Assembly: GCA_900128565.1 (NCBI GenBank)
Contig: LT635957.1
Span: 1 to 32,840 of the forward strand
DNA length: 32,840 bases
Direction: 5' to 3'
From: Stramenopiles sp. TOSAG23-6
Lineage: Eukaryota
Shown: positions 11,282-32,840 of the stretch, in pieces
Layout of the letters: each line of letters starts with the position of its first letter
How positions within the stretch are numbered: position 1 is the first letter of the stretch
The notes under the pieces: generated by a model
Told to the model about the DNA's origin: nothing
Database searches by the model: none
The model's input: only the letters and a program-made list of their open reading frames with translations
Position numbers and translations under genes: made by a program

Positions 11282-11516
11282 AGAATTTATATCATTATTA
11301 AAAGTATTTTCTTTAATCTATTTGTCTTTTGAATCATATTTTGGGTCATATAAAAGTAATGATATAATGAAATATTCAAATTATTTGTCACATCTGCATC
11401 TCTACGGCTTTGCCCTCTTCAAAGGCTTAAAAAATACTTTAGTATTATCATTTTATAATTTTATGTCCGATTTGTAATGAAGATTTCATAGATAAAATAA
11501 ATTTGAATTTCGATAG

Positions 11517-11533
11517 AAACCCTAACCCTAAAA
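11517..11533 (+). promoter_or_regulatory. Telo-box-like motif AAACCCTAACCCTAAAA upstream of the LYR-PB1 gene
   Basis: Two CCCTAA units about 110 bp upstream of ATG 11643. The same 14-mer occurs reverse-complemented at ~30075-30088. A regulatory role is only inferred. Confidence 0.3.
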
Positions 11534-11642
11534 GAGTTCTGTTCGGAACTTCGCGGATCGCTCCCAGGTATTCCAACACCACCGTGGACTGAATTTTATT
11601 CAGTTCAAATCTCCTAGTGGGTAATTCCAATTGCATTACACA

Positions 11643-12359
11643 ATGGTTTTGGGTGTACCAGTTGCCAATGGTGCTTCAAAAATCACTAGAGAATCTGTAC
11701 TCAGTTTATACCGCAAATGTTTGCGCACAGCGATGCGTTGTTGTCCTACAAATGAAAAGAGAATGGAAATGACTTTCTATGCGAGGCTGAAATTTAGGCA
11801 GAACTCTTCTCTTGTTGATAAAAATCGAATTAGATTAGCATATACAGACGGGTTGGAGCAAGTACAGAGTACTATCGCTTACCATATAGCATATTCTACG
11901 AGTAGAAACCAATTGGAAGAATTACCACGATCTGAATTTGGGAGGATAATACCAAATGAAGAAGGGTTGAAACCTTCTTTGAAAAGTGAAACTGCGGTTG
12001 CCAATAATACAGATAGTATTGAAACACATCAGAAAATTAAATTGGTGATGGGCCAACATAAACGTAGAATCTCTTCACACTCTCCGGTTGGTTTATTTCA
12101 ATTAAGAAAACTAATACAGAATACCTTCTGCGATGAGCTAAAGCAGTTACCTCCTTCACCTTCCACAGATTGTCCAGCAGCTAACTACACAATAGAATAT
12201 ACTGACGACGACGGTGATATGATACAAATAACTAATGATGAAGAACTGGTTGAAGCAATCCAAATAATGGAAAGTATGGGTACGTCCGTCGCGAAATTTG
12301 AAGTTCAACTTCAAACACCAGTTGATGATTCAGATGACTACAATAAACCTAATAAATAA
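11643..12359 (+). CDS. Complex1_LYR-motif protein fused to a C-terminal PB1 domain
   Basis: VLSLYRKCLRTA...ARLKFRQN...RIRLAYTDG is the LYR pattern. KIKL...KRR...IEYTDDDGDMIQITNDEELVEAI is PB1 with an acidic OPCA motif. First ATG is at 11643; the ORF-track start at 11631 is TTG. Confidence 0.85.
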   Translation: MVLGVPVANGASKITRESVLSLYRKCLRTAMRCCPTNEKRMEMTFYARLKFRQNSSLVDKNRIRLAYTDGLEQVQSTIAYHIAYSTSRNQLEELPRSEFGRIIPNEEGLKPSLKSETAVANNTDSIETHQKIKLVMGQHKRRISSHSPVGLFQLRKLIQNTFCDELKQLPPSPSTDCPAANYTIEYTDDDGDMIQITNDEELVEAIQIMESMGTSVAKFEVQLQTPVDDSDDYNKPNK

Positions 12360-12420
12360 ACCAGCACCAAACATATGCTATATGTTATTAGTTTTATAAA
12401 TAATATGAAAATGACTTTTT

Positions 12421-18400: not shown

Positions 18401-21400
18401 TTCGATAAATTAATATTTTTCAAGAAAAGAACTAGTCTTTCACAGTCACGGGGGCGTAATACTCTACCGGTGTTTGTAGAGAATACACCACACGATGATC
18501 GTAGTTTTTGAATGACATGCTCAGCAGTTGTGCGTGCATTACAATGCAATGTACAAATATTTGTATTTTTGTGACTTCCCAACACTTCTTCTATCAATGC
18601 AGATTTACCGGAACCTTCAGGCCCGACAATTATAAAAGGTTTCATATTCTCTGCCCAAGTTCCTACCATTGTGACATTTCTTTGGTATGCGGCTGTCGGT
18701 ATTACAATGCCTCTACGAAGAGTCTTTGGATCGAGTGATATGTGGGGAGCATGTGATATGTACTGTATCAGTTTATGTGTTTTAGAATCCCAGACACTAT
18801 TTAAGGGATCTTCTGGATCAGGAGGACGCTCATTGGCCCAACTAAATAATTGTGTTGCTAGATTTGCACGATCTTCTGTTACGAGATTTCCACCTAAACC
18901 TCGAATAATTGCGCGAATAAATTGGGCAAGTTCCGTAACATTTTCTAAATGAGAAAGTCCATTATTTACCGTACCAACCATTGTAGTATCAACGACAAAT
19001 CTATCAAGGTCTAGGACCCATTTTAATGCACGATAAAAGTAATCATCAATCCAGCTAACCATAGCCAATTGATTGGCGCTTGGTAAAGTAGAAAGCCATT
19101 TTCTAACTAACCTCTTTACGTCTACATCTTCATCGGATAGAAATATCATACCCATCCTAGATATTGTTGCTGGTGATGCGAATTGTAAGTCATGTGTCTC
19201 AAAAAGAAAATTGACATTCGGTCCAAAATTTATTCTTTCCCCACTTGGAAGAGTTAGCAAATGATTGTCATCCAATACAGAATTTAAAGACTCAATCCAT
19301 TCAGGATCAACGTCACCATCACAAATAATCCAACTTCGAACATTCGAAGGTTCTTTGACTACCTGCTTCGCAGCTGATGTAAGTACGCCATCAAACCACT
19401 CTCTCGTATCTAAATCCATATGTCCCAGTAATAGTTCTCTGGGCATCGATTTCGGATTCATCACATATGTTTTTAGTTCCTGACCACATTTTATCATTGC
19501 TTCTTTCAGTACCCGCCAAACTGTACTTTTACCACACCCAGAGGGCCCGACAATGACACAACCCATTCGCTGATCTAATGACTCTTTCAATTGTAACATT
19601 TTACTTAATTGCCCCTCATCAAATTCCAATGAACCTCCAAAGGCACCATCGTTCTGCTCCATTACAGCTCGTATTGCATCCTCAAGTTTCGGTACGGCAA
19701 TGTCTTCAACCTTGGCGTTTGGAAAAATATCGCTACATAACCCAACGAACCGACTCGCATCTTGGTAAGTTAATTTAGATAAAGTATTCACCCGAACAGA
19801 TTTGATAAGAATTTCTTCTTCTGCTGTTTCTGTGATTGTAGTCTCGCCCGATTCTGCTTTCAAGTTCTGAATAAGTTTTCCACCTGTGACTAAAATAGAT
19901 TTTAGAGCGCGAAGTCCCCAATCATAATGTTGTTGAGGGCTTAACAGTTCTTTACTCAGACCAAACAAACTACATATCTTCTTGCCCAATTCTTTTGCAT
20001 GTTTGAAACCTTCGGAGTATAAGATCACATTTGCAATAAGCTCATTATCTGGTCTCGACATTGCAACTGGTCTGAAAAGTTGCTTCAAATTATCGGGAAG
20101 TTTTGACCTTCCCCCATATCCTTTTTTAGGTGGGTTTAAAGTAACAAATATACCTGCATTGGAATCCACTTGAATATTTCGTCCAAGCAAAGACATTCTT
20201 TCATCCTTATTTTTGATTGCAGCTTGAATTAATTGAATCTGTTGTGACACAGCAGATAACTGATCTTCTTTTAATCTATTAAATTCGTCGAAACAACCCC
20301 AAGCTCCACATTTAACCAAACCGGTAAAAATACGACCCATCGATTGAAAATCAATCCCCTCGTCGCAATTGAATACTAAAACTTGTCTACCTAGAGCCGC
20401 ACCTAATGCTTTTACAGATTCTGTTTTCCCTGTACCAGCAGGCCCATAAGGATTACCCCCGTAACCTTGATGCATCCCTTGAGTGAGTGTCAAGTAACAC
20501 TTGTCTGTTAAAGGTGTATGTACTAATTTCGATGCATTACCTTGATACTCATATGTATAATTAAATTGAGCATTGCTCATTTTCGCAATACATAAGTCTC
20601 TTTTGTTCATATAGAAGCGCAATTGTTTCTGCCATGACCATGTATTTATCGACGGACAGCCATTTTGTATTAAGTAATCAACAACGTCCATATTATGAAT
20701 CAAATCTAACACCATCGCCTTAACTTTAATGCGAATTAGAGGCTTTCCGGTGAGGTCATAGCTTGTGTAGGTTTGTAGTGTTTCTGCCAATTGAGTTTTT
20801 AGTGATGCTAAATTTCCATTATGTATGGCAGCTTCTGTTCTCAAGGTGAAATTAACTATTTCAGAGAGACAAAGAACTTGCGATGCAAATCGAGTCATAT
20901 CAAGTGATTTCATAGCTAAACAATCTACAAGTTGCGTCTGCAGAGCATTTTTACTCTCCTCTTGTAGTACAATCAACCATTCCTCTGTTTCTTCAGAAAC
21001 CGGGACTGGGTCAGGCAGTTGAACAACTTCTCCCTTACCTGACTTTATTGCAATGATTTTTGAATTGTCCTCATTAAACTCAACAGTTTGAACACCTTGG
21101 AATAGCTTCTTTAAATGAGCCTGTATAACAGTTGGATTTTTAGCTTGACCAAGAATTTCTAATAAATCTTCATCGCCAATAAAATAAAATCTTGGCATTT
21201 TTTCACGTTTTTGTTCCAAGAAATCCGCCAGTGCTTTTGTACATCTTTCGAGCTGTTCGAGTAAAGCTTCAACATTCGATAATAAATTTGGGTGTACAGA
21301 AGAATCACACAATGTTAAAACTCGTTTATCGTCTTCAACTTTCGACATTATATCACGAAATTCGTCGTCAATTCTTTGAAATCTTTGATGTTCATGAGGC

Positions 21401-24400
21401 AAAGCACCACGTCCAAAGATTGGTTCTAAATAAAGCCATTTTCGTTGAATTAAGTTAAGATTATGTAAAATTTGATCTAAATCTGAGAAATTCTTCTCGA
21501 ATACAGATGCTTCTGCGGCAAATGCACGAAAGTATGGCGAATCTTTGAGTGATCCAAGTAGCGATTGATTGTCTCCTAAAGCAGTGAAAAGATCTTTCCA
21601 TTCAGTCAGGAGCATTGTCGTTCTACCCAGCTCTGTGTGTTCAAACAGAACAAGCTCAGCCGAGGCACACCAGTCTTTCAGCTCTACCATAGCCTCGCGG
21701 ATACGAACTTCGCCAGTAGCTCGGGCAGTAAGGTCTCGGCAAAATTTGTCACTTTTTGCAACAGCTTCTAATCGATCCAGAAAGTGCCCTGCATTGAGAT
21801 TCTCAAGTCTAGTGCCCTTTGGGATTCCAAGTTGACGAAACAAAGAAGCCCAATGAACTTCATTAAATGGTACATCACCTTTACAGAATTTAAGTGCAGG
21901 TAACGCAGACTTTAAAATGCCAAGCACTTCCTTCAAATGTATAGAAACAACATCTTTTTTTGTTTTGACTTTAGGTAACCAGTTTTGTACAAAATCAGAT
22001 AATTCGTAAATCCTTGTACGAAAATTAATCCAATCTTGGACACGAAATGCTTCCCATTCTTCTAGATATTTTTGCATTAAACTCCAACTCTCCTGGGTTT
22101 CTTGCATATCAGCCTGTAATTCTGTTAATGTTGGAAATTTTGGCACAGGCATATCAAAATGTACACAATTATTTTTCAGTGTATTTACTTCTTTAACTTT
22201 TTCTTCCATTTGTTCTTGCCAATCTTCAAGAGAATCAAATATACCTTGAATTGTTTCTGGATTCCAATTATTGACTTCTCCCTGAGGCTTAAGTGCATGC
22301 CATCGTAAAGCTAATTTCTCAACTGATTCATTAGCTTCTTTTATGCGCATGTCAATTTCTCCTTTTAACGTTTCACGTTGTTCCTCCACCAAGTCATTAA
22401 AAGCCTCCATAGCAACTTCAAAATTTTCCCATCTGGAAGGAAGCCTTCCGAGACGAACACGAACCTCTTCAACATCAACTCGATTACCAGCGACACTAAT
22501 GAGTAATTTTCTTCTTTCATCCGCTCGCCTCATTTCCATCTTTATTGACTTCTTTGAACCAGATAATTCTCCCCATGCCTTTTGTGCAAGACCTATTTCT
22601 TCTATAGATGTAGGTCTGGAGTTGAGTTGTTGCATGCCATTATCAAGGAACTCCTCAACTGTTGAAACCATCCGCAGTACAGATCTTTTCAGGGAAAGCA
22701 GAAGAGCATCACTCATTCGTTGTATATGATCTTCTACAGCTGATTTAAATGGCGCTGCACTTACATTAATACAATCCAGCTTGTAAAATTCTGGTAGCTT
22801 TTCGCTTTGTTTTAATCTTTTTTTTAACATTGCAAAATTAACTTGATACTCAGCCGCAGAGCTTACGTTTTCTTCGACATATTCGTCCATATCCGGAACA
22901 GTGCCCAATGCCACCCATAACTCTAAACCTTGTTTCAATTCCTTCAAACGCCGAAAAAGATCTTCTGCCTTTTTATATACCTGTATTAGACTTTCAGCAT
23001 TTTCTTTTTCGATACTTTTATAGACTGCTTTATTACCAAAACCATCAAAAGCAACGGGTATAGCTAAAAACCGACGCAATTCACGAAAATATTGTGTACG
23101 TATATCTTCTATCGCAGGACGGAATTCTAGACGTCGCTGAGTGAAACATAATTCAACCTTAATTTCCAACATATTTTCATTCAAAGATTCAAGACCCATA
23201 CAATATCCAGCTTCGAGTGCTTTACACAATTGATGATCCCAATGTAACTTCCAATTTGCCATCCTTTCTGTAGGATATTTTCGAGTTAAATCAGAGACCT
23301 TATCTCGCATATCGAACCATTTACTTTTCCATTGATCTCTTTGGCGCAGTAAATCGATATTCATTAACTCCGCAGTTTGCACTGCCAACTGCATATGTAT
23401 TTTACGCAAACTTCTATTTTCCTCAGACAGTGCATTTGCAGATAGTTGTAAATGCTCCACAAAGTCTTGACATTCTCGAGGGTTATTCCAAGTAACAGCC
23501 TTTTTTGCCCCTCGCTTGTTTCCTCGATGTAACTGGTTTTCAAAACGCTTCAATGCATCTAGCAGCATAGGCTTCTGTGTGACGACAATTTGATTTCCCA
23601 TTGAGTTGTAAAAGTTAGCTATCTTTTTGAGCATTACTCCATATCGGTAATATTTCTCACCATCACTTGCAACGCCTTTGATTCTCGAATTCACTTGGTG
23701 ACCAAGATCTTCAAGTTGTCTAACTTCCCTCAAAAGTCGCACAAGCTTTTCCGAATAATTTACAATGAGCTCTCCATCGACATCAATTTCCATTAATTGG
23801 CCCGAAACTTCCAACGAAAGCTCGCCATCATCAAGTAGGTATTCCGTAGCATCTACCCAATTTTGAAATTCGTTTCGACGCCAAGTACGCAATTTTTCCA
23901 TGAGTTCTTGAATCATTCCCTTGAAATCGTCGTATAAAGAGAGATCTGACAGAATATGTCTAGACCGAGTAAGTAGTCCTCTCATTCGAGCTTCACATTG
24001 TTTGGCCCATACTATATTATTTGTGACTATCGGAAGGTTACGACCTAATGGAGCACCTGACGATACATTAGCAGAAGATTTACTCTCTCTTTGGTGCATC
24101 GCACGAGATTGGTCTTTGACAGACTCGTAATCTTGGTCGCACTGTTCAACATATGCTGATAACTGAGCGAGTAAGGTTTCTCTCTCTCCATGTAGAGCCT
24201 TTGCAATTGTACGCCGCCCAAGAAGTTGCCGATAGCGAAGAAATTCTCTGAGCAACTGCTGCGGATGTTCGGACATCCCTGAAATTTGTTTCCTTAGATT
24301 AGAAGCGATATGTTGCTCAATGGGTGCTAGCTGACGATCATGCATAGCAACTGCATCTTCCCAGCGAGATTTTGTATATGGATTATAGTGCAAAGGACGT

Positions 24401-25569
24401 AGATCCGAAGCATTAAATGGATCAAATGCAGAAGCAACATTGAGTTCACGCTGTTCTTGTATTGATAATAAACGTAACAATTCTTCGTGTGTTGTGCGAA
24501 CTTTTAGTATACTTTCTAATCTCTCGGATAAATTTTTTATGTGCTGCTCTTCATAAGCAGCACCTTCCCAAGGATGCTCCTCACAGGATGGCCAGAAAGA
24601 CCCACTTAGATCTGCAGTCACAAGTGACCATCTTTCACAAACAAGAATAGCTTCCTGTAGACGACTCGCAACTTCCGCATATGCACCCTGCCATATATCA
24701 GTTGAACCGAGATAACTGGAAACATATCGAGCCAATGCACTGGCAATCACAGAAAATATATGTTTCATGCGATGTTGAGGATACTGAGATGACTGCCGAA
24801 CATCTGCTTTCCAAATATCATCGAGACAGTTTTGTGTGTCATCCACTAATTCTAAAATATCAGGCAAAGTCATTGTTAAATTATCACCCATTTCGTCTAC
24901 CTTACTTATACGTTGGAACCGACTTGAAATTCCCGAGAATATTTCTGAAAACTTTTGAGCTGACTCACCATTCGTACGATTATTGGCTAGCATTTTCCAA
25001 ACGTCGAACTCGTCAGATGGAACGAGGATAGAAGCCATAGCTTTTTTGTCGTGAATATCAGCTAACTCTGACGAACCTCTTCGTACTAATGAACCTAAAC
25101 CCGAATCCATAACAGCTAATAACTTTTGCATCTTTGGTGCCATTTTTGTTGACCAAGATTTATCACGTAAAAGCATTGGTGCATAGACCCGATGAGTTGC
25201 ATTATATAATGCATGTATTGGAGAATCTAACATAGAACTAACCATGATAACTTGTGCAAAGTTGTCGTCCGTAATAGGAGTAGGTCTTAACTTTACAAAA
25301 AGTACCTGGGAACAACGGAAATCTTTGCCGTCCCATACTGTATCGCTACGCATTTTATTCGATAAAACAATTTCCGGTGTTGAGTTGTTTTTTGTTGGTA
25401 TTGAGCATATTACTTGCAAAAGAGAGCAATTTTCATTCTCTAGAAATGTTGTCACTGCTTTAGACGATTCGATACAATCTCGTACTTTACTAGAGGTTTT
25501 AGAATCATCCAAGTATCCAAGCAGTGTACTCGCAGAAGTAATTATAAACTTTCGTCGACTGTCACTCAT
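12421..25569 (-). CDS. DYNC2H1: Cytoplasmic dynein-2 heavy chain (retrograde IFT dynein), 4382 aa, intronless
   Basis: P-loops GPAGTGKT, GPSGCGKS, GPEGSGKS and degenerate GRSGCGRK; WGCFDEFNR; QQHYDWGLRALK; stalk coiled coil. Features I recognise as dynein-2-like: LHWDHQL.KALE, SRPDNELIA, IQHEKPELE. Confidence 0.95.
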   Translation of the reverse strand: MSDSRRKFIITSASTLLGYLDDSKTSSKVRDCIESSKAVTTFLENENCSLLQVICSIPTKNNSTPEIVLSNKMRSDTVWDGKDFRCSQVLFVKLRPTPITDDNFAQVIMVSSMLDSPIHALYNATHRVYAPMLLRDKSWSTKMAPKMQKLLAVMDSGLGSLVRRGSSELADIHDKKAMASILVPSDEFDVWKMLANNRTNGESAQKFSEIFSGISSRFQRISKVDEMGDNLTMTLPDILELVDDTQNCLDDIWKADVRQSSQYPQHRMKHIFSVIASALARYVSSYLGSTDIWQGAYAEVASRLQEAILVCERWSLVTADLSGSFWPSCEEHPWEGAAYEEQHIKNLSERLESILKVRTTHEELLRLLSIQEQRELNVASAFDPFNASDLRPLHYNPYTKSRWEDAVAMHDRQLAPIEQHIASNLRKQISGMSEHPQQLLREFLRYRQLLGRRTIAKALHGERETLLAQLSAYVEQCDQDYESVKDQSRAMHQRESKSSANVSSGAPLGRNLPIVTNNIVWAKQCEARMRGLLTRSRHILSDLSLYDDFKGMIQELMEKLRTWRRNEFQNWVDATEYLLDDGELSLEVSGQLMEIDVDGELIVNYSEKLVRLLREVRQLEDLGHQVNSRIKGVASDGEKYYRYGVMLKKIANFYNSMGNQIVVTQKPMLLDALKRFENQLHRGNKRGAKKAVTWNNPRECQDFVEHLQLSANALSEENRSLRKIHMQLAVQTAELMNIDLLRQRDQWKSKWFDMRDKVSDLTRKYPTERMANWKLHWDHQLCKALEAGYCMGLESLNENMLEIKVELCFTQRRLEFRPAIEDIRTQYFRELRRFLAIPVAFDGFGNKAVYKSIEKENAESLIQVYKKAEDLFRRLKELKQGLELWVALGTVPDMDEYVEENVSSAAEYQVNFAMLKKRLKQSEKLPEFYKLDCINVSAAPFKSAVEDHIQRMSDALLLSLKRSVLRMVSTVEEFLDNGMQQLNSRPTSIEEIGLAQKAWGELSGSKKSIKMEMRRADERRKLLISVAGNRVDVEEVRVRLGRLPSRWENFEVAMEAFNDLVEEQRETLKGEIDMRIKEANESVEKLALRWHALKPQGEVNNWNPETIQGIFDSLEDWQEQMEEKVKEVNTLKNNCVHFDMPVPKFPTLTELQADMQETQESWSLMQKYLEEWEAFRVQDWINFRTRIYELSDFVQNWLPKVKTKKDVVSIHLKEVLGILKSALPALKFCKGDVPFNEVHWASLFRQLGIPKGTRLENLNAGHFLDRLEAVAKSDKFCRDLTARATGEVRIREAMVELKDWCASAELVLFEHTELGRTTMLLTEWKDLFTALGDNQSLLGSLKDSPYFRAFAAEASVFEKNFSDLDQILHNLNLIQRKWLYLEPIFGRGALPHEHQRFQRIDDEFRDIMSKVEDDKRVLTLCDSSVHPNLLSNVEALLEQLERCTKALADFLEQKREKMPRFYFIGDEDLLEILGQAKNPTVIQAHLKKLFQGVQTVEFNEDNSKIIAIKSGKGEVVQLPDPVPVSEETEEWLIVLQEESKNALQTQLVDCLAMKSLDMTRFASQVLCLSEIVNFTLRTEAAIHNGNLASLKTQLAETLQTYTSYDLTGKPLIRIKVKAMVLDLIHNMDVVDYLIQNGCPSINTWSWQKQLRFYMNKRDLCIAKMSNAQFNYTYEYQGNASKLVHTPLTDKCYLTLTQGMHQGYGGNPYGPAGTGKTESVKALGAALGRQVLVFNCDEGIDFQSMGRIFTGLVKCGAWGCFDEFNRLKEDQLSAVSQQIQLIQAAIKNKDERMSLLGRNIQVDSNAGIFVTLNPPKKGYGGRSKLPDNLKQLFRPVAMSRPDNELIANVILYSEGFKHAKELGKKICSLFGLSKELLSPQQHYDWGLRALKSILVTGGKLIQNLKAESGETTITETAEEEILIKSVRVNTLSKLTYQDASRFVGLCSDIFPNAKVEDIAVPKLEDAIRAVMEQNDGAFGGSLEFDEGQLSKMLQLKESLDQRMGCVIVGPSGCGKSTVWRVLKEAMIKCGQELKTYVMNPKSMPRELLLGHMDLDTREWFDGVLTSAAKQVVKEPSNVRSWIICDGDVDPEWIESLNSVLDDNHLLTLPSGERINFGPNVNFLFETHDLQFASPATISRMGMIFLSDEDVDVKRLVRKWLSTLPSANQLAMVSWIDDYFYRALKWVLDLDRFVVDTTMVGTVNNGLSHLENVTELAQFIRAIIRGLGGNLVTEDRANLATQLFSWANERPPDPEDPLNSVWDSKTHKLIQYISHAPHISLDPKTLRRGIVIPTAAYQRNVTMVGTWAENMKPFIIVGPEGSGKSALIEEVLGSHKNTNICTLHCNARTTAEHVIQKLRSSCGVFSTNTGRVLRPRDCERLVLFLKNINLSKPDKYNTSMLVAFLQQLCTFQGFYDDDLEFLGLDRVVVVCSINPATTLGRHQLSSRFTAIVNIAYMEEPTPDELSYIYTIYLRAALSGVALRDADKAFKQVKNIEKLASTMVKFYEQIRAKFTVDEHRHYLLTPRDLTNWVLGLGHYDLSIESLLDVVIYEARRLMKDRLVDSSSEKKFDTILSALFRKDWSHRIDLENIFFSTLVKDSSSNGIEGKHASEGKDNGEVLSGDENKESDMTEQSFRKLIRVSESDFIDVVKRGKLLYEREEKDLTLLLFTEVLEHISRVDRVLSRPGGSLLLVGRSGCGRKTTVQLCAFMQDIRFITPFITRRYSQKSFHVDLKNVLFEGGIEGRPVVFYLEDYHFIGDYILQSVNSLLSAGEISGLYTHEELEQLLSPLKEEMNERGLDMVYKTAFDYFVQRCRDNVHIALGMDHISPEFRQRCMSNPALFTRCSIQWFGEWEYSSMLVVPKLLMPDFLEEVADSDTLVQSMVDIHKSCLLCGDDEDSENAFFRRKTDTATPRDFMSFLETYLILYENMKVDILSNANRMEGGLAKLQEASMTVDELSKNAVQQRATLAEKQQEADAAMVKITEALELASERKSEVTELQTVLSAAKSKTDKRKGLIEEELSGIQPVLDAAKKAVGQIKSENLDEIRSLKTPPDPIRHVLSAVLTLLGINDTSWLSMRNFLGKRGVKDDILNFDTARITREMRKLVGKTMKKNPNSFEKKAIRRVSIAAAPLAEWVKANIEYSVVLETVMPLQEELDKANSELKYASEKLKSNAKELKTIQNKVNRLKKEFAQKTREAEQTRSSLEKTEIVLEKAETLLGKLSGEQSRWESTVKQLRSEVQDLPYRILLAAGFVTYLAKSDENIRRQATRVWTKITGLDSFDFRSVLSSESEQLTWKAAGLPSDNLTMENSIVILNSKRTPFIIDPSSAATSWLKGHLQKSGVTVECLPSQDPRFANQVELAVRFGKTLMLMEVDGVEPMLYPLVRRDFSRQGSRLVVQIGEKTIDFNEKFVMYMVTRNPNPSIPPDAASLITVVNFTVTKSGLEGQLLGATIQHEKPELEKQKSDMLQREESFKVQLASLEKDLLKTLAESSGNLLENQDLIDSLTQTKIKSKEIMIALEESTKASEELDSQRDVYLDFARDGAQLFFLVKQLQNINHMYQFSLQSYLGLFNATLDTKVTYETIHERLKVLTPLLIQRTLFYVGRSLFKADRQMWAIHLVHGMYPNEFEENEWEFFGGYLAPDLRARGEPKGFPSWAPRERASTFRLFSDTFPELVSRLELLDSDMWSKWSRSATCERNFPKKMAQKLSAFQRLLTVQVLRPDRLQSAMDVFACELLGLSSISPTPTNVSRLHQEESSCETPILFIVTTGVDPCKDLQDYAAQTVGEDNYFEMAMGGGTQDKAIRLLQRCAERGTWLCLKNLHLVIAWLPVLEKTLNSLHSHKNFRLWLTAESHDKFPTILVQQALKCTVEAPPGVKKNLQRTYDSWNEEFVSAGSGKRSQVMFLLAFIHAIVQERRNYIPQGWSEFYEFSLGDLRAATNVIESALKSSDTSGGGRESKHGGAVHGLWNTVHGMMENALYGGRVSNIFDMRVLKAYLSFYFSDAMLSGNIEIPSIGLSIPKSSNHGEYFSFIGRLPDSDAPSLFGLPANIERSAQRANSTRIIKDLKRLKRSSGEHSAFNQDVWRAQLGPVIDTWEKTLKNSKANGSLISPRYNEGKSREGKDEGKNNFEGKSKSFEGGAFDPESPVSQFVQMELAGASSLMHIVDGDLKAVKQVLHGNALLTPAIANTARCLMNSIVPVRWDRKWEGPETPQVYMSAVAAKCEAVHHWRELINSKSLLDSPLNLADLLHPGTFLNALRQETSRVTKCPLDDLKLISAWDRSLVKGSLKVCVEGLLLQGAVFTDKVLEEANVNDLELMSAPTCYIGFVPNDTVEPYGSENTLHAPLYYNTSRERLLTELGLPIKGQREKWILAGVALFLEDC

Positions 25570-25892
25570 TGTGGTTTGCTTTACTTTGAGAGGACTACAA
25601 ACGTATTCGGGATAGAGCTAATCTCAAAAAGCCTGAGCAATATCAAGGTTAAATAAGTTCACTTTTAAAGGAAGATATACAAAGATGATGAACAAAAAGA
25701 GTTTGGCGAGCTACTACTAACCAATCTAGCCTACTTATAGTGAATATTTTAACGTAGTATTGCCTAAATGTAACTGTTGTTTTTCCGTTTCATCTCCGAA
25801 CTACGAGTCCTACGTTATTAAACGGTTGGTAGGGTACCGCTAGTTAAAGAAGGATTTCATAATCTGTAGAACGTGCGCCGCTGATACTAAAA

Positions 25893-27083
25893 ATGTCAAA
25901 TTTTTACCTGGTAGAACAAAAGTTTAAAGCTGGAAAAGCTGAGGGTTGGTGGAAAAGAATATTCGAATTAAAGAAGTCTGTCAAAGAAACGAAAAAATTT
26001 ATGGATATGGCAAAATCATTAGGCTACTTCCTTCATTCTCTCAATGCAAGCGATACTAAATCTACCATTTGGTGTTTCTGGGAAGTTAAGCCCACCAATT
26101 CAGAACACGACTTATACAAATTTATCAATGGCCCCCATGGTCTTTCATTTGGTTGCTGCTCTAGTATTTTCCATTCTATTCCTAATGATATTTTACATGG
26201 AGGTACTGTGTATAAACAATATTTCTCTAATGACAAATACGTCGAGCCTATAATCCTTAACCCGGGAGAAAATCCATCGCAGTTTTACATCGTGCGCCAT
26301 GATCTTAAAAGACACCATCAAGACACTTGTTGGGATTTTTTTTCTACTCTAGGGAAAGATTACAAGAAGTTGACGGCAACTCTTGAATCGTGGGATCTTC
26401 TTGGTTTTCACAACCACTCCTTCAACCCAATAGGACCTGAAGGTCCTTTTTTTAGCGTATGGGAAACTAAACCGGACAAAACACATAAAGATTTCGACGA
26501 TTTTCTAACGCATACTTTTTACCCACTTGGCATCACTAGTGTATTGAATCCAATTGATCACACGTTATCCGGTTTAGCGGGAAGTTTAACACCATATCCT
26601 CGTTTTTTCACCGATGCTGGAATGGAAATACGAATGTCAATTGAAAATCACTTTAAAGGCATCCAAGAATATAATATGTACCAATTGAAGCACGGATTCA
26701 ATGAGCAACGGTTTAAAAAAACATGGTCAAAGAGTACATCATTAAACGCGGAGTTTATCGGACCCAACGGGAGGGTGATAACATTTGAAGATGTCATTAA
26801 AGCTAAGAAGAAGGAAGAAGACCTTACAGAAGTTCATCAAGAGTTATTTAGCATAGAAGATATAGTTATTTTACCCGGCAAACTTTCAGCTTACGTGCGC
26901 TACGTTGAACACAGTTTGTGTAAGGTCGGAGGTGTAACCCACGACGTCCACGTAACTTGGACAGCAGTTTTGCTAAAAAGAGGTCCAGGGTTGTGGATGA
27001 TTTATGGAGGTCATAGGTCGAGAACTCATGGAGCCTTAAAACAACCACCAAAAGAAGATGATGCAAGGGTAGTATTAGTATAA
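25893..27083 (+). CDS. Hypothetical protein: two tandem ~110-aa domains plus a C-terminal NTF2/SnoaL-like (DUF3804-like) domain
   Basis: Repeat 1 FYLVEQKFK...WW...LGYFLHS...CFWEVKP...KFI parallels repeat 2 FYIVRHDLK...CW...LGFHNHS...SVWETKP...DFL. The C-terminal FIGPNGRVI...TWTAVLLK...WMI...HRS resembles NTF2-fold DUF3804 proteins, from recall only. Confidence 0.75.
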   Translation: MSNFYLVEQKFKAGKAEGWWKRIFELKKSVKETKKFMDMAKSLGYFLHSLNASDTKSTIWCFWEVKPTNSEHDLYKFINGPHGLSFGCCSSIFHSIPNDILHGGTVYKQYFSNDKYVEPIILNPGENPSQFYIVRHDLKRHHQDTCWDFFSTLGKDYKKLTATLESWDLLGFHNHSFNPIGPEGPFFSVWETKPDKTHKDFDDFLTHTFYPLGITSVLNPIDHTLSGLAGSLTPYPRFFTDAGMEIRMSIENHFKGIQEYNMYQLKHGFNEQRFKKTWSKSTSLNAEFIGPNGRVITFEDVIKAKKKEEDLTEVHQELFSIEDIVILPGKLSAYVRYVEHSLCKVGGVTHDVHVTWTAVLLKRGPGLWMIYGGHRSRTHGALKQPPKEDDARVVLV

Positions 27084-27300
27084 AAATAATGTTTACAATA
27101 CAATCAATAAATATCAATAAATATAAAGAATTATTTGAGTTCAAAACATTTTATTTAGACAAAACTATTAATAGCCAACCATTAAGTTACATATACCTCC
27201 TGGAACAGCACGGCGAAAGCTTCACACGACGTTGACATCCATTACACATTTCAATTAATTTTAACGACCCTCAGGATCTCATTGGTTGGTGGATTAAAAT

Positions 27301-28131
27301 TTATAACCACCATATTAACATAATAATTAAAGTATACAATGACAATGATGTAAACGAAAGCACAAAAACATTAAAGCAAAACAAATTATTGCAACCTATT
27401 ACAGTACCAGTCCATGGACAGTAATGATCGATTTCTTCTATCTTATAATATGTGCAATATGTAAGCTATGAAACAAATGAATAAACTCTGTTGTACAAAG
27501 ACAAATAGTATCACTGTATTATACATAAAAAATACAGTGTTTGAGTTTCCGAGCAAAACAAAATCCTTCGCTCGGACATTGGCGGTCTAAATGAATCTGT
27601 CAGTGGATGCTGTCGCCAGTTTTCAGCTTGCGGTGCGGAATACCTGGGAAATATTCCAGGTGAGCGACAAGCAGTACACATGAGAGACACTCCGGTAAGA
27701 ATAACTAGAGGAATGGCAGGTATGTATAGCCCCCACGGTAAATTTGGCAGAGTAACCACAAATAATAGTATCGATGGTAGGATAAGAAGTACCGGCACAG
27801 TAATGAAGACGAGACATACCCAATCTGGACCAATAATACATCTTGGATACGGTTTTCCATCTTTTGTTTTGCTTTCCGAAAACATCCAGAATCGACCAAC
27901 AGGTTCGGGGCGACAACAGCGAAAACAGCAGAATACACACGGAGGTTTCGGTGACGACCGAGTTGGAACATAATTAAGTTGACCATTCTCAATTATGATG
28001 GGTACTCTTTTTACAATCCTTTCACCACTTTTATTTAGTGAGTTGTTTGTCGCGTCGTCTAACATATGTACTGATGAGCTATCCGGAGAGTTGCTCGCCC
28101 TTACAGGTTTAACTTTTGCCTGTAAGGACAT
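27301..28131 (-). CDS. DHHC-family protein S-acyltransferase (DHYC variant), two exons: 28131-27536 and 27442-27301
   Basis: Exon 1 has GPDW, two TM helices, PGIFPR and FRPP..FCSETQTL. Exon 2, translated by hand, reads IEEIDHYCPWTGTVIGCNNLFCFNVFVLSFTSLSLYTLIIMLIWWL*. Joining them restores the usual C-x10-DH spacing. Confidence 0.88.
27443..27535 (-). other. Putative non-canonical intron, 93 nt, GT...AA (CT|GTATTTT...ATTATAA|GATA)
   Basis: In-frame insert with TGA and TAG stops between homologous DHHC segments. No GT-AG pair keeps the frame open. Confidence 0.7.
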
Positions 28132-28523
28132 TTATCAAAGTGGCATCATATAGAGAGCTAATTTACCATAAGTGAACTTAACTGATCTCGTTAATTAAGG
28201 TAAGAAACAACTATTCATAAAATAACCACATCTGGTGCGTTTCATTGTATTTTTTCAACTTAATTCTCTTAGGAATTCGTCATCCGTTAACTTTTATTTA
28301 ACGGAAAAAAGAAAAAGATCAAGATGTATTCTCTTACTCTTACTATTCAATATATCACACAATCTTACAGAATCTTCTTTATATATAATAATATAAAATC
28401 AAAATATAAATAAAAAATGCGTGAATATCAAATATAACGTTTATTATTTTAAGATTTCCATTCATGACTGTTTTCGGAAAAGAAACACTGAAAGGGCTAT
28501 TTATTAGAATTAAACAGGGTAAA

Positions 28524-29546
28524 TTAAAAAAAGAAATCCGAATTTATATCGTGGTCCAATATTTTTTTGGAAGGGAATTCTTCCCCAGTCTCACCAGTTC
28601 TCAGCACATCGTGCTCTCGAGTACCGCGTTTCCGTGGTGTCACTACCCTGACAGCGTGTAGTGTACGCATTGCATTGAGCTGTTCAAAAGGAATATACTT
28701 TTTGTCCGTATAGTTAGAAGTTTTCTCAGAGCCTAAAGAAAAGCGTCTTGTATTGCGATGTTCAAAAGGAACATACTTTTTGTCTTTTAACTTTTTGAGG
28801 GAGTCTAAAGAAAAGCGTCTTGTATGTCTTACTAGTCCTTTTTTGGGCTTCGGAATAATTGCAACAACTTCTCCTGATGGTGTCGACTTTTTCTTTGTCA
28901 CTGCTTCAGACAATACTTTAGGTAATTTATATATCCTTTCAAAGGAAAATGTCATACCTTCTGGGACTCCATGACCATGTATATCAAGCCATTGTGCTAA
29001 TACCATTTCCAAGCAATCATAGTTAACTTTCTTTGTAGATGATTTTTCTTTATGGTGAAGAATGACTTCTCGAAGGATGTATGCATCGATATCTTTCAAG
29101 GGAACTTGCTTCGTAGAATACTTCACGTACGCAGATTTCGCTATTCGCTTTACATCAAACATTGCGTCATTTCGAGAAGTGCCACTGTGGCGAAGTAACG
29201 GAGAATCTCCAGTGTCATCCTGACTTTTGTTATGCTCTCTCAACCACTGAAGGAATGTTTCCGCGAGGACTTCATCAACGTTTTCTTCAGATAGATCTTC
29301 ATAAGGCAAAGTATTGACCTCCAAAGCTAAGTTCACCAATGTACTGACATTATTGTAGAAAGCTTCGATTGTTGAAATAGCACCCATGTATTCGAAGTTT
29401 TCAAATAGGAGTTGAGGTGTACAAATAATATGTTTCTGCTCTTTCATTTCAACTGAGAGTACTGAGCTAGGGGCCAGCAAAAAAGCAGCGTGTACAGCTG
29501 GGCTGTACATAACGTAGAATAAACACACAATAAAAATATACTTCAT
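28524..29546 (-). CDS. Hypothetical protein with a duplicated TRRFSL...DKKY.PFE motif; start uncertain
   Basis: 1-kb open frame. First ATG at 29546 (MKYIF), alternative ATG at 29510. The frame stays open to ~29630 after a ctatag, so it could be a terminal exon. No family recognised. Confidence 0.6.
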   Translation of the reverse strand: MKYIFIVCLFYVMYSPAVHAAFLLAPSSVLSVEMKEQKHIICTPQLLFENFEYMGAISTIEAFYNNVSTLVNLALEVNTLPYEDLSEENVDEVLAETFLQWLREHNKSQDDTGDSPLLRHSGTSRNDAMFDVKRIAKSAYVKYSTKQVPLKDIDAYILREVILHHKEKSSTKKVNYDCLEMVLAQWLDIHGHGVPEGMTFSFERIYKLPKVLSEAVTKKKSTPSGEVVAIIPKPKKGLVRHTRRFSLDSLKKLKDKKYVPFEHRNTRRFSLGSEKTSNYTDKKYIPFEQLNAMRTLHAVRVVTPRKRGTREHDVLRTGETGEEFPSKKILDHDINSDFFF

Positions 29547-29809
29547 CGATTTATCCGCCTTTATCGAATAGTGCACTTTGTTTTTCAATGGATTTCTTTC
29601 TCGACTTTTTTTTAACTGTGTCGTTAAAACCTATAGCTAGGCTGCGTTTAAATGAATTCAATAGTATAAAGACATAGCCTCCCCTGGGGGCTGTCCTTTA
29701 AAAAAATAGTAGCAAATTTGAAATTATTTGCCATCCCAAAAAAATTGGAATTTCGTGCGTCTGTTTTTTTTACAATAATCGTATCTTCCTATCTTTCGTT
29801 CCTCACGAG

Positions 29810-30509
29810 CAGGGCTGGCATCGGACGAAATCGGCCGGTTTCGTTCCATTATAATTTATAATGGCGTTCCATTCCATTACATTCCATTCCATGAGAGCGC
29901 CGGGGATTTCGTGTATAATGGAATGGAATGCCATTATAGATTTTCAGATTCCATTATAATGGAATGGAATGGAATGGGATTTTTTTGGAAAATTTATAAT
30001 GAGCCATTATAATATATAATGAAATCTCATTATATTATAATGAAATCTCATTATATTATAAGCCTCGTATTACCTAGGGTTAGGGTTTTCCCCTTTATTC
30101 CTTAAAAAAAAAGATCACATAAACAAGTGTAATTTCACTAATATTCAATATTTTTCTAAAGTAAATAGCAGTAAATGATCCCATGATTACATGCAATCTT
30201 CCTATAGCCTTCTTGTGTACACTATATTTGTGAAATTACATTTTATTTTGTTGCTGCCAATTTTTTTTTTTTTTTTTGGTTTTCGTAGTAAATTTTGTAC
30301 CTAACGATTTTAGCTAACGATTTAGAAAATTATTCCATTATAACGCAAAAAAAATTGGGTTATAATGGAATGGAATGCCATTATAGATTTTCAGATTCCA
30401 TTATAATGGAATGGAATGCCATTATAGATTTTCAGATTCCATTATAATGGAATGAAACTCCATTCCATTTTTTGATTTCGTGTTATAACGGCGTCCGATG
30501 CCAGCCCTG
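29810..30509. mobile_element. Non-autonomous hAT-superfamily DNA transposon (MITE), 700 bp
   Basis: Perfect 18-bp TIRs CAGGGCTGGCATCGGACG (29810-29827) and CGTCCGATGCCAGCCCTG (30492-30509). Perfect 8-bp TSD CTCACGAG at 29802-29809 and 30510-30517. CAG termini, subterminal repeats, no ORF. Confidence 0.95.
29914..30442 (+). repeat. Subterminal 41-bp unit TATAATGGAATGGAATGCCATTATAGATTTTCAGATTCCAT (29914-29954, 30361-30401, 30402-30442) and a 21-bp tandem pair (30015-30056)
   Basis: Exact copies read directly. Many GGAAT/ATTCC pentamers and CCATTATAATGG palindromes. Confidence 0.92.
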
Positions 30510-30655
30510 CTCACGAGTTGTTGTAGCAAAATCTAAAAAATCTAAATCCTTCCAAGTTTACATTACATTATTCTTAGATTTAGATAATTTTCGGATAGTA
30601 TTCAAACCTTTAGCATTCTGAACTATTTATATCTGCACCAAATTCAGATCCAGCA

Positions 30656-31831
30656 ATGAATGATTCAGAAATAACCGAGCGTAGCTCACAGTTAAATATT
30701 TGGTTAGATGAACTTTCAAAAACCCCAACAGCAAAGCTTTTGGGAATTAGCCCTGCTGAACGTGACGAATTATTACGATTACGAGACGAAAATAATTCTT
30801 TACAGATGAATCTTGAGTCAATTGAAGATGAAATTTCAAGAAAAGAAAAAGTATTGAGAGATACCAAAGTAAAAGCTGCTACAGGGAGAAAAGAGTTACA
30901 GTCTGATTTAGCTCCATTTGCTAGAGTCCTCCAAGACCTGGAGGTTGAAGAGCGAGTATTACGACACAAAGTTATAAAAGAGAATAAAGTTGCCGAGTTA
31001 AAGGAGTTTCTAGAGCGCCAGGAAGCATTACGAAAGGAGGAGGAGAAAATGAAAAGAAAGTTGGAAGAAGCAGAGGACGAGTTACAAGAACTGCGTGATT
31101 CCATTGCCAGTGTTGATCCTGGAAGTTTACTGCCAAATCAACTAAAAAATATTGCATTGTATATAAAATGGAAAAAACTGCTCGCAAAGAAGAATAAAAT
31201 GGAGAGAAAGAATCGTGAAGAATCGTACAAAAAGATGGAAATCGAAGAAGCCAAAGAGGAGTTGGACATTATCGTAAAAGAAATGGAGAAAAAGGCTGAA
31301 ATTTTGCAGATAGAAGCAAAAACTAAAGAACATGAAGATGCAATCAATGAATGTAACACAAGAATTGCAACAATGGAGATGGGTACTAAAATAGCTATGA
31401 GCGAAATGCAAAGTTTTGGTGAAGAATTTAAGAAAGTTAGTGCCGCAATTAAGAAAAGTAAAGAATTGAAAACAAAAGAGTTACATGATCTTTTACAACA
31501 TAAAAAAAAATTACAACAAGCGGAATCATGGTTTAATGAGCTAATGAAGAAGGAAGTAGATCAAATACGCAAACAAGTATCTGACAAATGGAAAATCATT
31601 CTCCAAGAGCAACAAGATAAAGCAGCGATCAAACTTGATGAAGAACGTCAATCTTTCAAATCTAAAATAGAGAATGCAAAACATGAGTTGGGTGTAAAAT
31701 ATTCAGGTGGGTTTGAAACACTTTTAAATGCAGCAAAAGAAAAATATTTAGTTGCCAAAACTGAAGCAGAACAATTACAACAGGAGGTTAATCATAAAAA
31801 AATACTTGTTGATCAAGCTGAAAAGGATATT
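30656..31831 (+). CDS. Long coiled-coil protein exon (E/K-rich)
   Basis: Heptad-like E/K/L-rich ORF. Coding character ends at ...EKDI|GTATGT (31832); the ORF-track tail VCFIFFQ... is intronic. The frame is open back to 30614 after tttag, so it may be an internal exon. Confidence 0.8.
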
Positions 31832-31925
31832 GTATGTTTTATTTTTTTTCAAATTCGTTTTTTTTTTCGTACGAAATTTTGTACCTAATGAATTTTTTGT
31901 TTTGAAATATTTTTCCAAAATACAT
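31832..31925 (+). other. Putative repeat-type intron, 94 nt, GTATGT...ATACAT|G; paralogous to 32742-32840
   Basis: Shares gtatgttttatttttttt, ttcgtacga.attttgtacctaa and tttgaaatatttttccaaaatacat with the copy 910 bp downstream. Confidence 0.65.
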
Positions 31926-32741
31926 GCGTTTCACCACAGGCTTAAATCAAATGGTGTTTCTCTGTCAACGGGTGAATGCACGTTTTCATCATGAATGTAT
32001 TACTTTATAGTTTTCTTTTTTCATAGTACATTTCGTACCTAACGATTTTTTTTTTTTTGTAAAATTCTTGTTTTTTTTCACAATACATGTGGTAATATTT
32101 TAGAAGCTGTAAATCTCACACTCAATATTTTTGATGTTTCCTATGTTGATCGAAATTTAGGTAGTAGTGGTATGACCATTCAACTACTCACAGCTTCAAA
32201 TGGAACATTTCGTGTTGACACAGACTTGAGTGATTTAACACATGCGCGCATGAAACGATCTGGTGTTGGATGTGATTGTATCTGTTTTGACTTGTACGGT
32301 ATTCACTTACATTTCATTTTTTTGTTTTTTTTGTTTTTTTTTGTTAGGTACAAATTTTACTATGAAAAAAATATTTCAAAAATATTTTTGAATTTGTATT
32401 CACTTATTTCATTTTTTTTTTCATCGTACATTTTCATAAAAACAAATTTTATATCTAACGATGTTTTTCAAAAATATAACATATTTTTCTACAATATTAA
32501 CGTCCTTCCCACCCAGTACCTTTATTTATTTTTAATCCAAAGAATACAAAATCTAAAATAGACAGTAAATCTTCAGAGCATTCTTCAAGTCGGTCGCGAC
32601 GAACTCATAATCGGACTCACTCTCGTTCAACATTTCGATATACTAAAAATAATACTAAAATATCTAAAACGTCTAAAAATAATCGAAACCCCAACCCTAA
32701 TTATAAACATACTCAAAGATACGAAGAATCATTTGGTGCAT
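31926..32741 (+). CDS. DEPDC5: DEPDC5/Iml1 (GATOR1 subunit) homologue, SABA/vWA-like domain exons 31926-31992, 32089-~32293 and ~32500-32741; partial
   Basis: Hand translation GECTFSS|CGNILEAVNLTLNIFDVSYVDRNLGSSGMTIQLLTASNGTFRVDTDLSDLTHARMKRSGVGCDCICFDL|RPSHPVPLFIF is colinear with the DEPDC5 segment as I recall it ([28 protein letters not shown]...GVFEVD..L..LTKQRMIDNGIGVDLVC...PLHAVPLF). Confidence 0.85.
31993..32088 (+). other. Putative non-canonical intron, 96 nt, GAATGT...ATACAT|G (alternative: 92 nt GT...AT from 31997)
   Basis: In-frame TAA at 32040-32042, then no AG before the conserved GNILEA at 32091. Flanked by the direct repeat CATG (31990-31993 and 32086-32089). Confidence 0.7.
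32294..32499 (+). other. Putative non-canonical intron(s), ~203-206 nt, exact borders ambiguous
   Basis: Separates CICFDL from RPSHPVPLF. In-frame TAA at 32498-32500, and the nearest AG (32515-32516) lies inside the conserved PxHxVPLF motif. Confidence 0.6.
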
Positions 32742-32840
32742 GTATGTTTTATTTTTTTTTTGTATGAATTTTTTTTCGTACGACATTTTGTACCTAACAA
32801 AAATTAAATTTTTTTTTTGAAATATTTTTCCAAAATACAT
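32742..32840 (+). other. Putative repeat-type intron, 99 nt to the window edge, GTATGT...ATACAT
   Basis: Begins with GTATGT where the open DEPDC5 exon loses coding character. Paralogous to 31832-31925. Confidence 0.6.

Follow-up and report, generated by a model that had tools for sequence, protein, structure and literature searches.

How could a gene be expressed through short repeated interruptions that carry what looks like a perfect 5' splice site and a branch motif, and hold no AG on which to end? This question is raised by the 3' end of a 32,840-nt stretch of DNA, referred to here as the window (positions 1 to 32,840, forward strand, of contig LT635957.1, GenBank assembly GCA_900128565.1, Stramenopiles sp. 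TOSAG23-6), whose last 2.6 kb contain six copies, four whole and two partial or rearranged, of one T-rich non-coding family of 92-100 nt, in and beside an interrupted IML1/DEPDC5-like gene. We consider it probable that these are introners resembling miniature inverted-repeat transposable elements (MITEs), each excised together with one short border repeat (ATG) by cuts which may be read as GT..AT or, equivalently, as AT..AC. The observations below establish the family, its abundance in marine samples, its sense position in three unrelated coding sequences, the lack of a canonical in-frame solution for its removal, and purifying selection on the interrupted exons. Splice-like signals in the copies, together with this selection, suggest that removal takes place at the RNA level through the spliceosome, and the family may have spread by DNA transposition with a 3-nt target duplication.

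The two most similar copies are i1 (31832-31925, forward strand, 94 nt) and i4 (32742-32840, forward strand, 99 nt), which are identical at 82 of 100 alignment columns (82%; blastn E 5.5e-21 within the window), including 18 nt at the 5' end and 26 nt at the 3' end. An earlier sequence-only reading of this DNA had described a shared 5' end of ~18 nt, a shared central motif and a shared 3' end of 25 nt, all of which is borne out. Copy i1 begins GTATGT, has the core, a CTAAT 37 nt from its end and the terminus ...ATACAT, and its family-level similarity spans 31831-31926. The core common to i1 and i4 is TTCGTACGA[A/C]ATTTTGTACCTAA, the leading 10 nt of which form a perfect palindrome; as a 23-nt pattern allowing up to three mismatches it has five matches in the window against 0.03 expected, a count that none of 100 shuffles reached. 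A third copy, i2 (31997-32088, forward strand, 92 nt, GT..AT), carries the core at 77.6% identity to i1 over 58 nt (E 4e-8) and ends in ACAATACAT (..ATACAT), in agreement with the claim that it shared the central motif and the AATACAT end, save that its start, formerly placed at 31993, lies at 31997.

Further copies were absent from the earlier list. The composite interruption i3 (32299-32498, forward strand, 200 nt, or 203 nt if it extends to 32501; the 3' border is uncertain, ..ATATT or ..TTAAC) consists of two tandem copies, i3a (32299-32395), which has forward-strand ends and only the core on the reverse strand (32341-32373), and i3b (32396-32498), a forward copy (forward match 32405-32496) with CTAAC at 32455; both begin GTATTCACTTA. 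The inverted core of i3a could come from recombination at the palindrome TTCGTACGAA. The i2 and i3 copies are 62-66% identical to i1 and i4. The remaining copy is partial (30279-30312, forward strand, core only, profile E 2.3e-5) and lies next to other repeats in the intergenic spacer 5' of a coiled-coil open reading frame (ORF), with the core at 30282-30304 bearing one mismatch and a weaker blastn likeness across 30260-30342. A profile built from five copies gave six matches with E<0.01, all within 30279-32839, and searching with it found no family copy in the other ~30 kb of the window, where nothing scored better than E 0.12. One short-core match at 12581-12591, inside dynein coding sequence, was discarded as chance. 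Copy i4 ends in ..ATACAT at the last base of the window, with its 3' flank past the window end, which is as expected if the assembler halted at the repeat.

On the sense strand each whole copy has a 5' GTATGT or GTATTN (GTATTA/GTATTC), a CTAAC/T core motif 37-46 nt from its 3' end, and a T-rich tract. GTATGT, CTAAC and a T-rich tract in sense orientation are signals read by the spliceosome. The element centre is a perfect 10-12-nt palindrome, TTCGTACGAA (31866-31877, 32775-32786), followed by GTACCTAAC/T, which we read as a putative branch site. The terminus ..ATACAT is an inverted copy of the (AT)GTAT at the 5' end, so that the weak inverted repeats proposed earlier (ATGTAT...ATACAT) are indeed present, over 6 nt in i2 and i4 and at five of six positions in i1. 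The direct repeats proposed at the borders, ATG and CATG, fared less evenly: ATGT stands on both sides of i2, while CATG is not general, i1 has TTG against ATG (two of three positions), and the repeat cannot be read at i4 or in a metagenomic copy described below.

The interrupted gene was recognised from its exons. Exon 2 (31926-31996, forward strand, frame from 31927, ...VNARFHHE) aligns with ..AFHRFH.. of the three closest IML1 homologues, directly upstream of their GN[IL]LEA block. Exon 3 (32089-32298, forward strand) encodes the core, best-conserved block of the IML1 N-terminal domain (Pfam PF12257, E 1.7e-16); it matches residues 304-369 of human DEPDC5 (PDB DEPDC5 chains, E 1.3e-10 to 1.8e-23) and 519 library proteins at E<=0.001, with 52-57% identity to the best homologues over 65 residues and no stop. 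Exon 4 (32499-32741, forward strand) encodes ..RPSHPVPLF.., in which PSHPVPLF aligns with P-P-L-H-x-V-P-L-F of the homologues, and then a low-complexity basic stretch. Only positions 206-285 of the 286 of the PF12257 profile were found, in exons 3-4, and its first 200 positions had no match anywhere in the window. Upstream, a coiled-coil ORF of 392 aa from its first ATG (30656-31831, forward strand) runs into i1; it has no IML1 similarity and no Pfam family at E<0.001, and the atlas gave as leads only ciliary coiled-coil proteins, all scoring below 0.9.

Four public sequencing runs (X3, seawater DNA; X4 and X9, RNA libraries from one sample, which may hold DNA; and X11, poly-A RNA) were aligned to 30100-32840 at 90% likeness, and the runs carrying the stretch are marine. 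A strain ~98% identical to the window is present in X3 with the same layout, and its contigs (31458-31857, 32033-32305 and 32482-32766) cross four exon-element borders, with the element present at each. Strain differences in exons 3 and 4 (X3, X4, X9) are all synonymous in the frames inferred by homology (2/2 in exon 3, 4/4 in exon 4; positions 32258, 32270, 32600, 32605, 32612 and 32614), and the one at 30675 in the coiled-coil ORF is non-synonymous. The X3 contig over the 3' part of i2 and exon 3 shows five substitutions and five gaps, with only two of the substitutions within the 207-nt exon. The six synonymous changes out of six point to purifying selection on exons 3 and 4 and to a gene in use. 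Since the copies carry stops in the exon frames, reading them through as coding sequence is ruled out, and with the exons under selection the copies must be removed before translation.

We tested the borders by enumerating every donor/acceptor pair at i2 and i3 that leaves the frame open and the conserved peptides on either side intact. None of the in-frame open junctions was of the GT/GC..AG type, neither at i2 (0/455) nor at i3 (0/171). Copies i1 and i4 contain no AG whatsoever, and in the copies ending ..ATACAT none lies between the branch motif and the following exon. Beyond the i1 branch motif, the first AG (31938-31939) was rejected for an in-frame stop, and the first after i2 (32102-32103) for giving a stop and for deleting, if used, the conserved GNILEA. 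At i2 exactly 92 nt must be removed, and with ATGT at both borders the excisions 31995-32086 (AT..AC) and 31997-32088 (GT..AT) yield the same mRNA, so that RNA-seq junctions cannot tell them apart. With its 5' site at GTATTC (32299), i3 keeps the frame by ending at 32498 (..ATATT) or 32501 (..TTAAC), and at i1 the removal of 95 nt (31829-31923, AT..AC) keeps the frame between the coiled-coil ORF and exon 2.

Two rules can be drawn from these junctions. Copies that end in AC are in frame at all three testable places, with possible readings of AT..AC for i1, i2 and i4 and GT..AC for i3; for this rule the 5' cut has to fall 2 or 3 nt before GTATGT, and i3 has to be cut at GT. Under the GT..AT rule the cut coincides with the splice-site-like GTATGT; this rule fails at i1, and leaves i3 ending in TT. 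AT..AC is the only pair other than GT-AG known to be accepted by the spliceosome. Judging from the borders, the cut sites may be either GT..AT or AT..AC, with the same mRNA resulting from each. The earlier proposal that an inverted copy of the 5' end supplies a 3' CAT in place of CAG is thus sustained in part: the 6-nt inverted ends and the lack of an in-frame GT/GC..AG agree with it, while AT..AC gives the same mRNA and GT..AT breaks the i1 frame.

In the mechanism that we favour, a miniature transposon-like element would become an intron where it is inserted, bringing along its own 5' splice site (the yeast-like GTATGT), pyrimidine tract and branch site; taking out the element and one copy of the border repeat (ATG) would restore the reading frame. 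As i3a has lost the forward branch motif through inversion of its core, the i3 pair would be spliced as one intron, via the branch and 3' end of i3b. A bolder version, put forward tentatively and rather unlikely in our judgement, is that a transposon-like element made thousands of spliceosomal introns ending in a non-G (GT..AT), with a 3' end composed of the inverted 5' splice site plus the target duplication. The 3' site would then be chosen without an AG, perhaps because of how far it lies from the CTAAC branch or through pairing to the 5' end. If this is true, the rule most strongly conserved in the second step of splicing would have been relaxed naturally and throughout a genome, with textbook 5' and branch sites kept.

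Copies outside the window indicate the extent of the family. In one metagenome contig (L001), a 29-aa stretch with a weak match to the start of DNA_pol_B (E 0.038) is directly followed by ATGTATGTTTT..., a copy ~85% identical to i1 over 87 columns. After ~85 nt of element the contig continues as unrelated sequence (170-1076), and the 3' element border there is unusable; its end carries what we take to be a sequencing-adapter motif, and the contig is presumably chimeric. In the seawater DNA run X3, 5309 contigs were placed on the 2.7 kb and thousands match i1 or i4 at 90% or more. Summed contig depth in this run, which takes in other organisms and is not copy number, was 87,207 in the i1 bin and 84,261 in the i4 bin, 1,661-2,971 in the i2 bins, 12-53 in the i3 bins and 4.2-5.9 in the exon bins; in the RNA libraries X4 and X9 it was ~15,000 and 11,000-13,000 on the element versus 2-8. 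The T-rich i3 bins stay low (12-53), showing that T-runs alone do not attract contigs. The family is very large in the X3 sample, in the sense of abundance rather than of a count.

The same contigs define the unit that is repeated. Other copies align from 31831 or from 32738-32742 (mostly 32740) up to 31925-31928 (mostly 31926) or 32089; the family consensus thus begins with (A)TGTATG and finishes with ATACATG, and each end has an ATG. Similarity between copies starts and stops at the exon-element borders, both in the alignment of the copies and in the contigs, which diverge before 31831 and mostly after 31926 or 32089. At position 31858 the majority letter is A in at least 111 X3 contigs, as in i4 and L001, and i1 therefore departs from the family consensus there. 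One poly-A RNA contig (X11), lying on 32768-32839, contains a copy that ends ..ATACA followed by GTAAGTC.. instead of T, from which it follows that CAG-ended variants of the family exist in the sampled community.

All five copies with a coding flank are in sense, with the GTAT end toward the 5' side of the coding strand, and one fragment is intergenic. Their host sequences, the coiled-coil ORF, the IML1 exons and the DNA-polymerase-like stretch in L001, are unrelated to each other. The sequence-only reading had proposed an introner-like mobile family, and what stands of this is one repeated family, in sense, in unrelated coding sequences and very abundant in independent marine samples, set against an uninterrupted rest of the window. 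On the points that can be tested without the genome, the introner-like reading appears well supported, and the 3' end may be that of a GT..AT or of an AT..AC intron. The suggestion that the gain was recent is supported only in part: i1 and i4 match thousands of contigs at 90% or more, the i2 and i3 copies have 62-66% identity to them, and the ~98% strain has copies at the same four junctions, all that its contigs cover.

Several observations weigh against this account. Exon-exon junctions of the IML1-like gene were not found among the 15 joints listed (132 further joints exist beyond these) in the runs examined, and the two RNA contigs extending to a border (32491-32695 and 32686-32766) continue into the element and are hence either unspliced or DNA. 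At i1 the element-aligned GT..AT borders break the frame, taking out 94 nt instead of the 95 required. Only i2 has a perfect border repeat, the border repeat ACG of i3 gives no in-frame excision, and the inverted ends are short, at 6 nt. RNA folding of three copies was no better than that of shuffled sequences for two of them (z -0.83, -0.23 and -2.10). The core pattern was found at one locus in metagenome_contigs and at none in viral_contigs and genome_contigs, the great summed depths mix organisms, as stated above, and copies spread evenly would make 30 kb without a single one very unlikely. Lastly, the N-terminal ~300 residues of IML1 are nowhere in the window.

The 3'-end pattern had no match in either of the two contig collections searched with it, and exon 3, used to query a large protein collection for spliced protein forms, had no match among the longer proteins (37 candidates, none scored) and no candidate near the length. 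None of the DNA joints listed removes an element precisely, and no empty site was seen among them. Parts of the gene without RNA contig cover are uninformative on splicing. In the poly-A run X11 the coiled-coil ORF has a depth of 5-8 and the element bins less than 2, which could mean removal; these values come from seven contigs only and contig depth cannot rank the parts of a gene, and we did not use them as evidence.

How else could the copies be explained? Their non-AG 3' ends would also fit removal from RNA by a non-spliceosomal route, in which the inverted ends pair and bring the exons together, as has been proposed for the introns of euglenids and diplonemids and for those of Amoebophrya; the short direct repeat across the borders together with inverted ends is reminiscent of the latter (direct repeats of 3-5 nt, inverted repeats of 8-20 nt; PMC7789003), and the minimum-energy fold of i1 does pair the two ends. 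Nevertheless, an inverted repeat of 6 nt is below that range, the folds are not significantly stable and leave the ends of i2 and i4 unpaired, and a perfect sense-strand GTATGT with a CTAAC motif and a T-rich tract is what a spliceosome reads, and we regard this route as improbable. It is still less probable that the copies are plain MITE insertions which are never removed, in an IML1-like gene that is a dead or dying pseudogene with exons still looking open. Such a gene would account for the lack of a spliced form, for the N-terminus missing from the window and for the frame break at i1 with aligned borders, but it sits badly with strain differences in exons 3 and 4 that are synonymous in six of six cases, with a stop-free exon 3 at 52-57% identity over 65 residues, and with copies that are all in sense where they have coding flanks and that carry splice-like signals. 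We give very little credence to the idea that these are ordinary old introns, alike only through strong extended splice signals and the T-richness of introns in this genome. The common GTATGT, CTAAC and T-runs do look like splice signals, and i2 and i3b are merely 62-66% identical to i1; however, neither the 26 identical 3' nucleotides of i1 and i4 nor the palindromic TTCGTACGA core is a known signal, a copy ~85% identical stands in another gene from another sample and thousands of contigs match at 90% or more, one fragment is intergenic and one core is inverted. Equally unlikely is excision from DNA in an expressed nucleus, as with the internal eliminated sequences of ciliates, the assembly then being the unprocessed form. 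Short AT-rich elements with short direct border repeats and weak inverted ends would suit such a process, but X3 DNA contigs keep the element at all four junctions that they reach (one in 31458-31857, two in 32033-32305, one in 32482-32766), no listed DNA joint drops an element precisely, no stop breaks the long ORFs when they are read with the standard code, and the dynein has stramenopiles as its nearest named relatives.

A false join of the contig inside the high-copy i1, with the coiled-coil ORF and the IML1 exons coming from two loci, is a real possibility, although we lean against it, and it would affect the reading of i1 only. Some 290-600 residues precede the exon 3 block in IML1 homologues, and this part is missing from the window: with homologues of at least 700 aa from the 150 listed, tblastn gave 93 hits to exon 3, one to exon 4 and, elsewhere, scattered hits at E 0.045 or worse. 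The break of frame at i1 with aligned borders would fit a false join, i1 is bridged by no X3 contig (one breaks off at 31857, another that covers 31860-31926 fails to enter exon 2), and the source data look like a small single-cell set. Against this, removal of 95 nt (31829-31923, AT..AC) joins the two frames stop-free, though this would happen by chance one time in three, and exon depth in X3 is equal on both sides (4.2-5.9), with a similar GC content at third codon positions (GC3). The i1 junction may reflect a mis-join inside i1, a separate coiled-coil gene ending in the element, or an odd fusion specific to the lineage. Being possibly chimeric, i1 is unfit for fixing the splice rule, and the family finding is untouched by this. 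The introner reading, with removal by the spliceosome, is the one we retain in placing the family among known systems.

U2-type AT-AC introns exist, and yeast genetics has shown compensation between a G1-to-A change and a change of the last G to C. The window family resembles them in that cuts at 31995/32086, 32740/32838 and 31829/31923 give AT..AC, in frame at both testable junctions (i1 and i2), and differs in that the AT lies 2 nt (i2, i4) or 3 nt (i1) upstream of GTATGT and is missing at i3, and in a start of AUGUAU rather than AUAAGU. With U12-type introns, whose consensus is 5' [AG]TATCCTT and TCCTTAAC near the 3' end, it shares the possible AT..AC ends and a core that matches TCCTTAAC at 6/8 positions; unlike them it has no ATATCC 5' site, its copies beginning GTATGT or GTATTN, and its branch motif, CTAAY, stands 37-46 nt from the 3' end instead of roughly 10-26 nt. 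MITEs typically have terminal inverted repeats (TIRs) of at least ~10 bp and target-site duplications whose length is fixed; in the window family the ends are inverted over 6 nt, and the ATG(T) repeat is perfect at i2 and two of three at i1. The tunicate Fritillaria reportedly has non-canonical MITE-linked introns and a U2 spliceosome that is said to accept 3' ends of the form A-N; the likeness lies in borders that depart from GT-AG, in short direct repeats and in an origin proposed to be from MITEs. No other mode of intron gain in bursts is as well documented as introners, reportedly the subject of a 2016 study by Huff et al.

Many marine protists have introners with border duplications and inverted ends, in which the duplication furnishes one splice site or both (PMC9860276, PMC12130899). 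The window family shares with them, as described in Micromonas, Aureococcus and other marine protists, near-identical short introns, here putative ones, in unrelated genes, a presumably high copy number and a marine protist host, as well as similarity bounded by the exon borders, short border repeats, inverted ends (in some families), and an element that would carry one splice site and be removed with one border repeat. Published families were accepted only with a 5' GT/GC/GA/AT and a 3' AG/AC (PMC12130899), and the present one differs by an element-aligned 3' end in AT with no AG, by an excision predicted from the DNA, and by having no known transposase partner. The dinoflagellate introner-like elements are of TIR type, with target duplications of 3-8 nt that provide one splice site (Roy et al., 10.1101/2020.10.14.339549); they too create introns mainly in one orientation, but every class described has a 3' AG, with variation confined to the 5' site (GT/GC/GA).

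Closest in lacking GT-AG borders are the non-canonical introners of Amoebophrya, with direct repeats of 3-5 nt over the borders, inverted repeats of 8-20 nt and borders that are undeterminable (PMC7789003, Farhat et al. 2021). Repetition without GT-AG, ambiguity of the borders, inverted ends and a MITE-like look without transposase are common to both. Theirs, unlike ours, form hairpins through the 8-20-nt inverted repeats, have no common end dinucleotides and come from a genome in which U1 was not found (PMC7789003), whereas the window family has 6-nt inverted ends, folds that are not significant, a perfect GTATGT 5' end and a CTAAC core; at i2 there is a direct repeat of 3-4 nt. The nonconventional introns of euglenids and diplonemids likewise lack GT-AG at their borders and have short direct repeats, and an origin from MITEs has been proposed for them (PMC12621601), but they are marked by G+C-rich, extended and stable pairing of the ends and by the lack of U1 complementarity, in contrast to an A+T-rich family with a canonical GTATGT 5' site and no significant folds. 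We found no description of the window family in the literature on introners in stramenopiles or marine stramenopiles (MAST), in narrow searches; the supplements of the two surveys (PMC9860276, PMC12130899) give families genome by genome and may cover the lineage. A single-cell stramenopile paper (PMC5778133) mentions introns only in its methods.

Every introner family described to date either brings accepted splice dinucleotides with it or recruits them. The family studied here inserts in the coding sequence of an otherwise intron-free stretch, with a perfect 5' site and a branch motif and no AG to end on. If its copies are spliced, they would offer a natural test of how a 3' splice site is chosen, through GT..AT or through a major-type AT..AC built from the target duplication, and nearly all introns of the lineage may be young and of a single origin. 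There is also a practical trap, as gene finders that demand GT-AG would break every gene that contains copies, and assemblies would end or mis-join at them.

The remainder of the window is intron-poor, with large uncut ORFs and no further T-rich stretches; 60-nt windows with at least 60% T are confined to the region after 30.2 kb. Two long frames are uninterrupted under the standard code. The first (2-11281, forward strand, 3759 aa) runs off the 5' end of the window, includes a gap of 20 Ns at 452-471 and a single N at 3376, and has no Pfam family at E<0.001. The second (12421-25617, reverse strand, 4398 aa) encodes a complete heavy chain of dynein-2, the cytoplasmic dynein of intraflagellar transport, with all domains. 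The closest named relatives of its motor are stramenopiles, with 70-72% identity over 614 residues, and the top match overall is at 74%. In a FastTree analysis of one dynein segment the window adjoins the EukProt sequence 'PLAT', near the base of the stramenopiles, a placement that serves as a lead only, given a tree without support values, with narrow sampling and with no euglenozoan, rhizarian or ciliate sequences. GC3 differs little from one ORF to another (0.28-0.36), with lower values in the two short IML1 exons.

Between the two long frames lies a 244-aa ORF (11625-12359, forward strand) with a Complex1_LYR domain (residues 24-80) and a PB1 domain (137-228), an unusual pairing in one frame, and 25863-29630 contains three ORFs without a family. 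An Rfam scan of 29500-32840 gave nothing near any gathering score. A second repeat system occupies the spacer at 29800-30520, where inverted arms of 26 nt (29802-29827 and 30492-30517) are 92% complementary and lie 664 nt apart; between them are a 72-nt unit (TATAATGGAATGGAATGCC...) in three copies and numerous short repeats that form hairpins. In the seawater DNA run X3, the bin at 30284-30375, which takes in spacer repeats and the partial introner copy, has a depth of 54 against ~5 in nearby unique bins. This second system looks like another foldback or TIR element.

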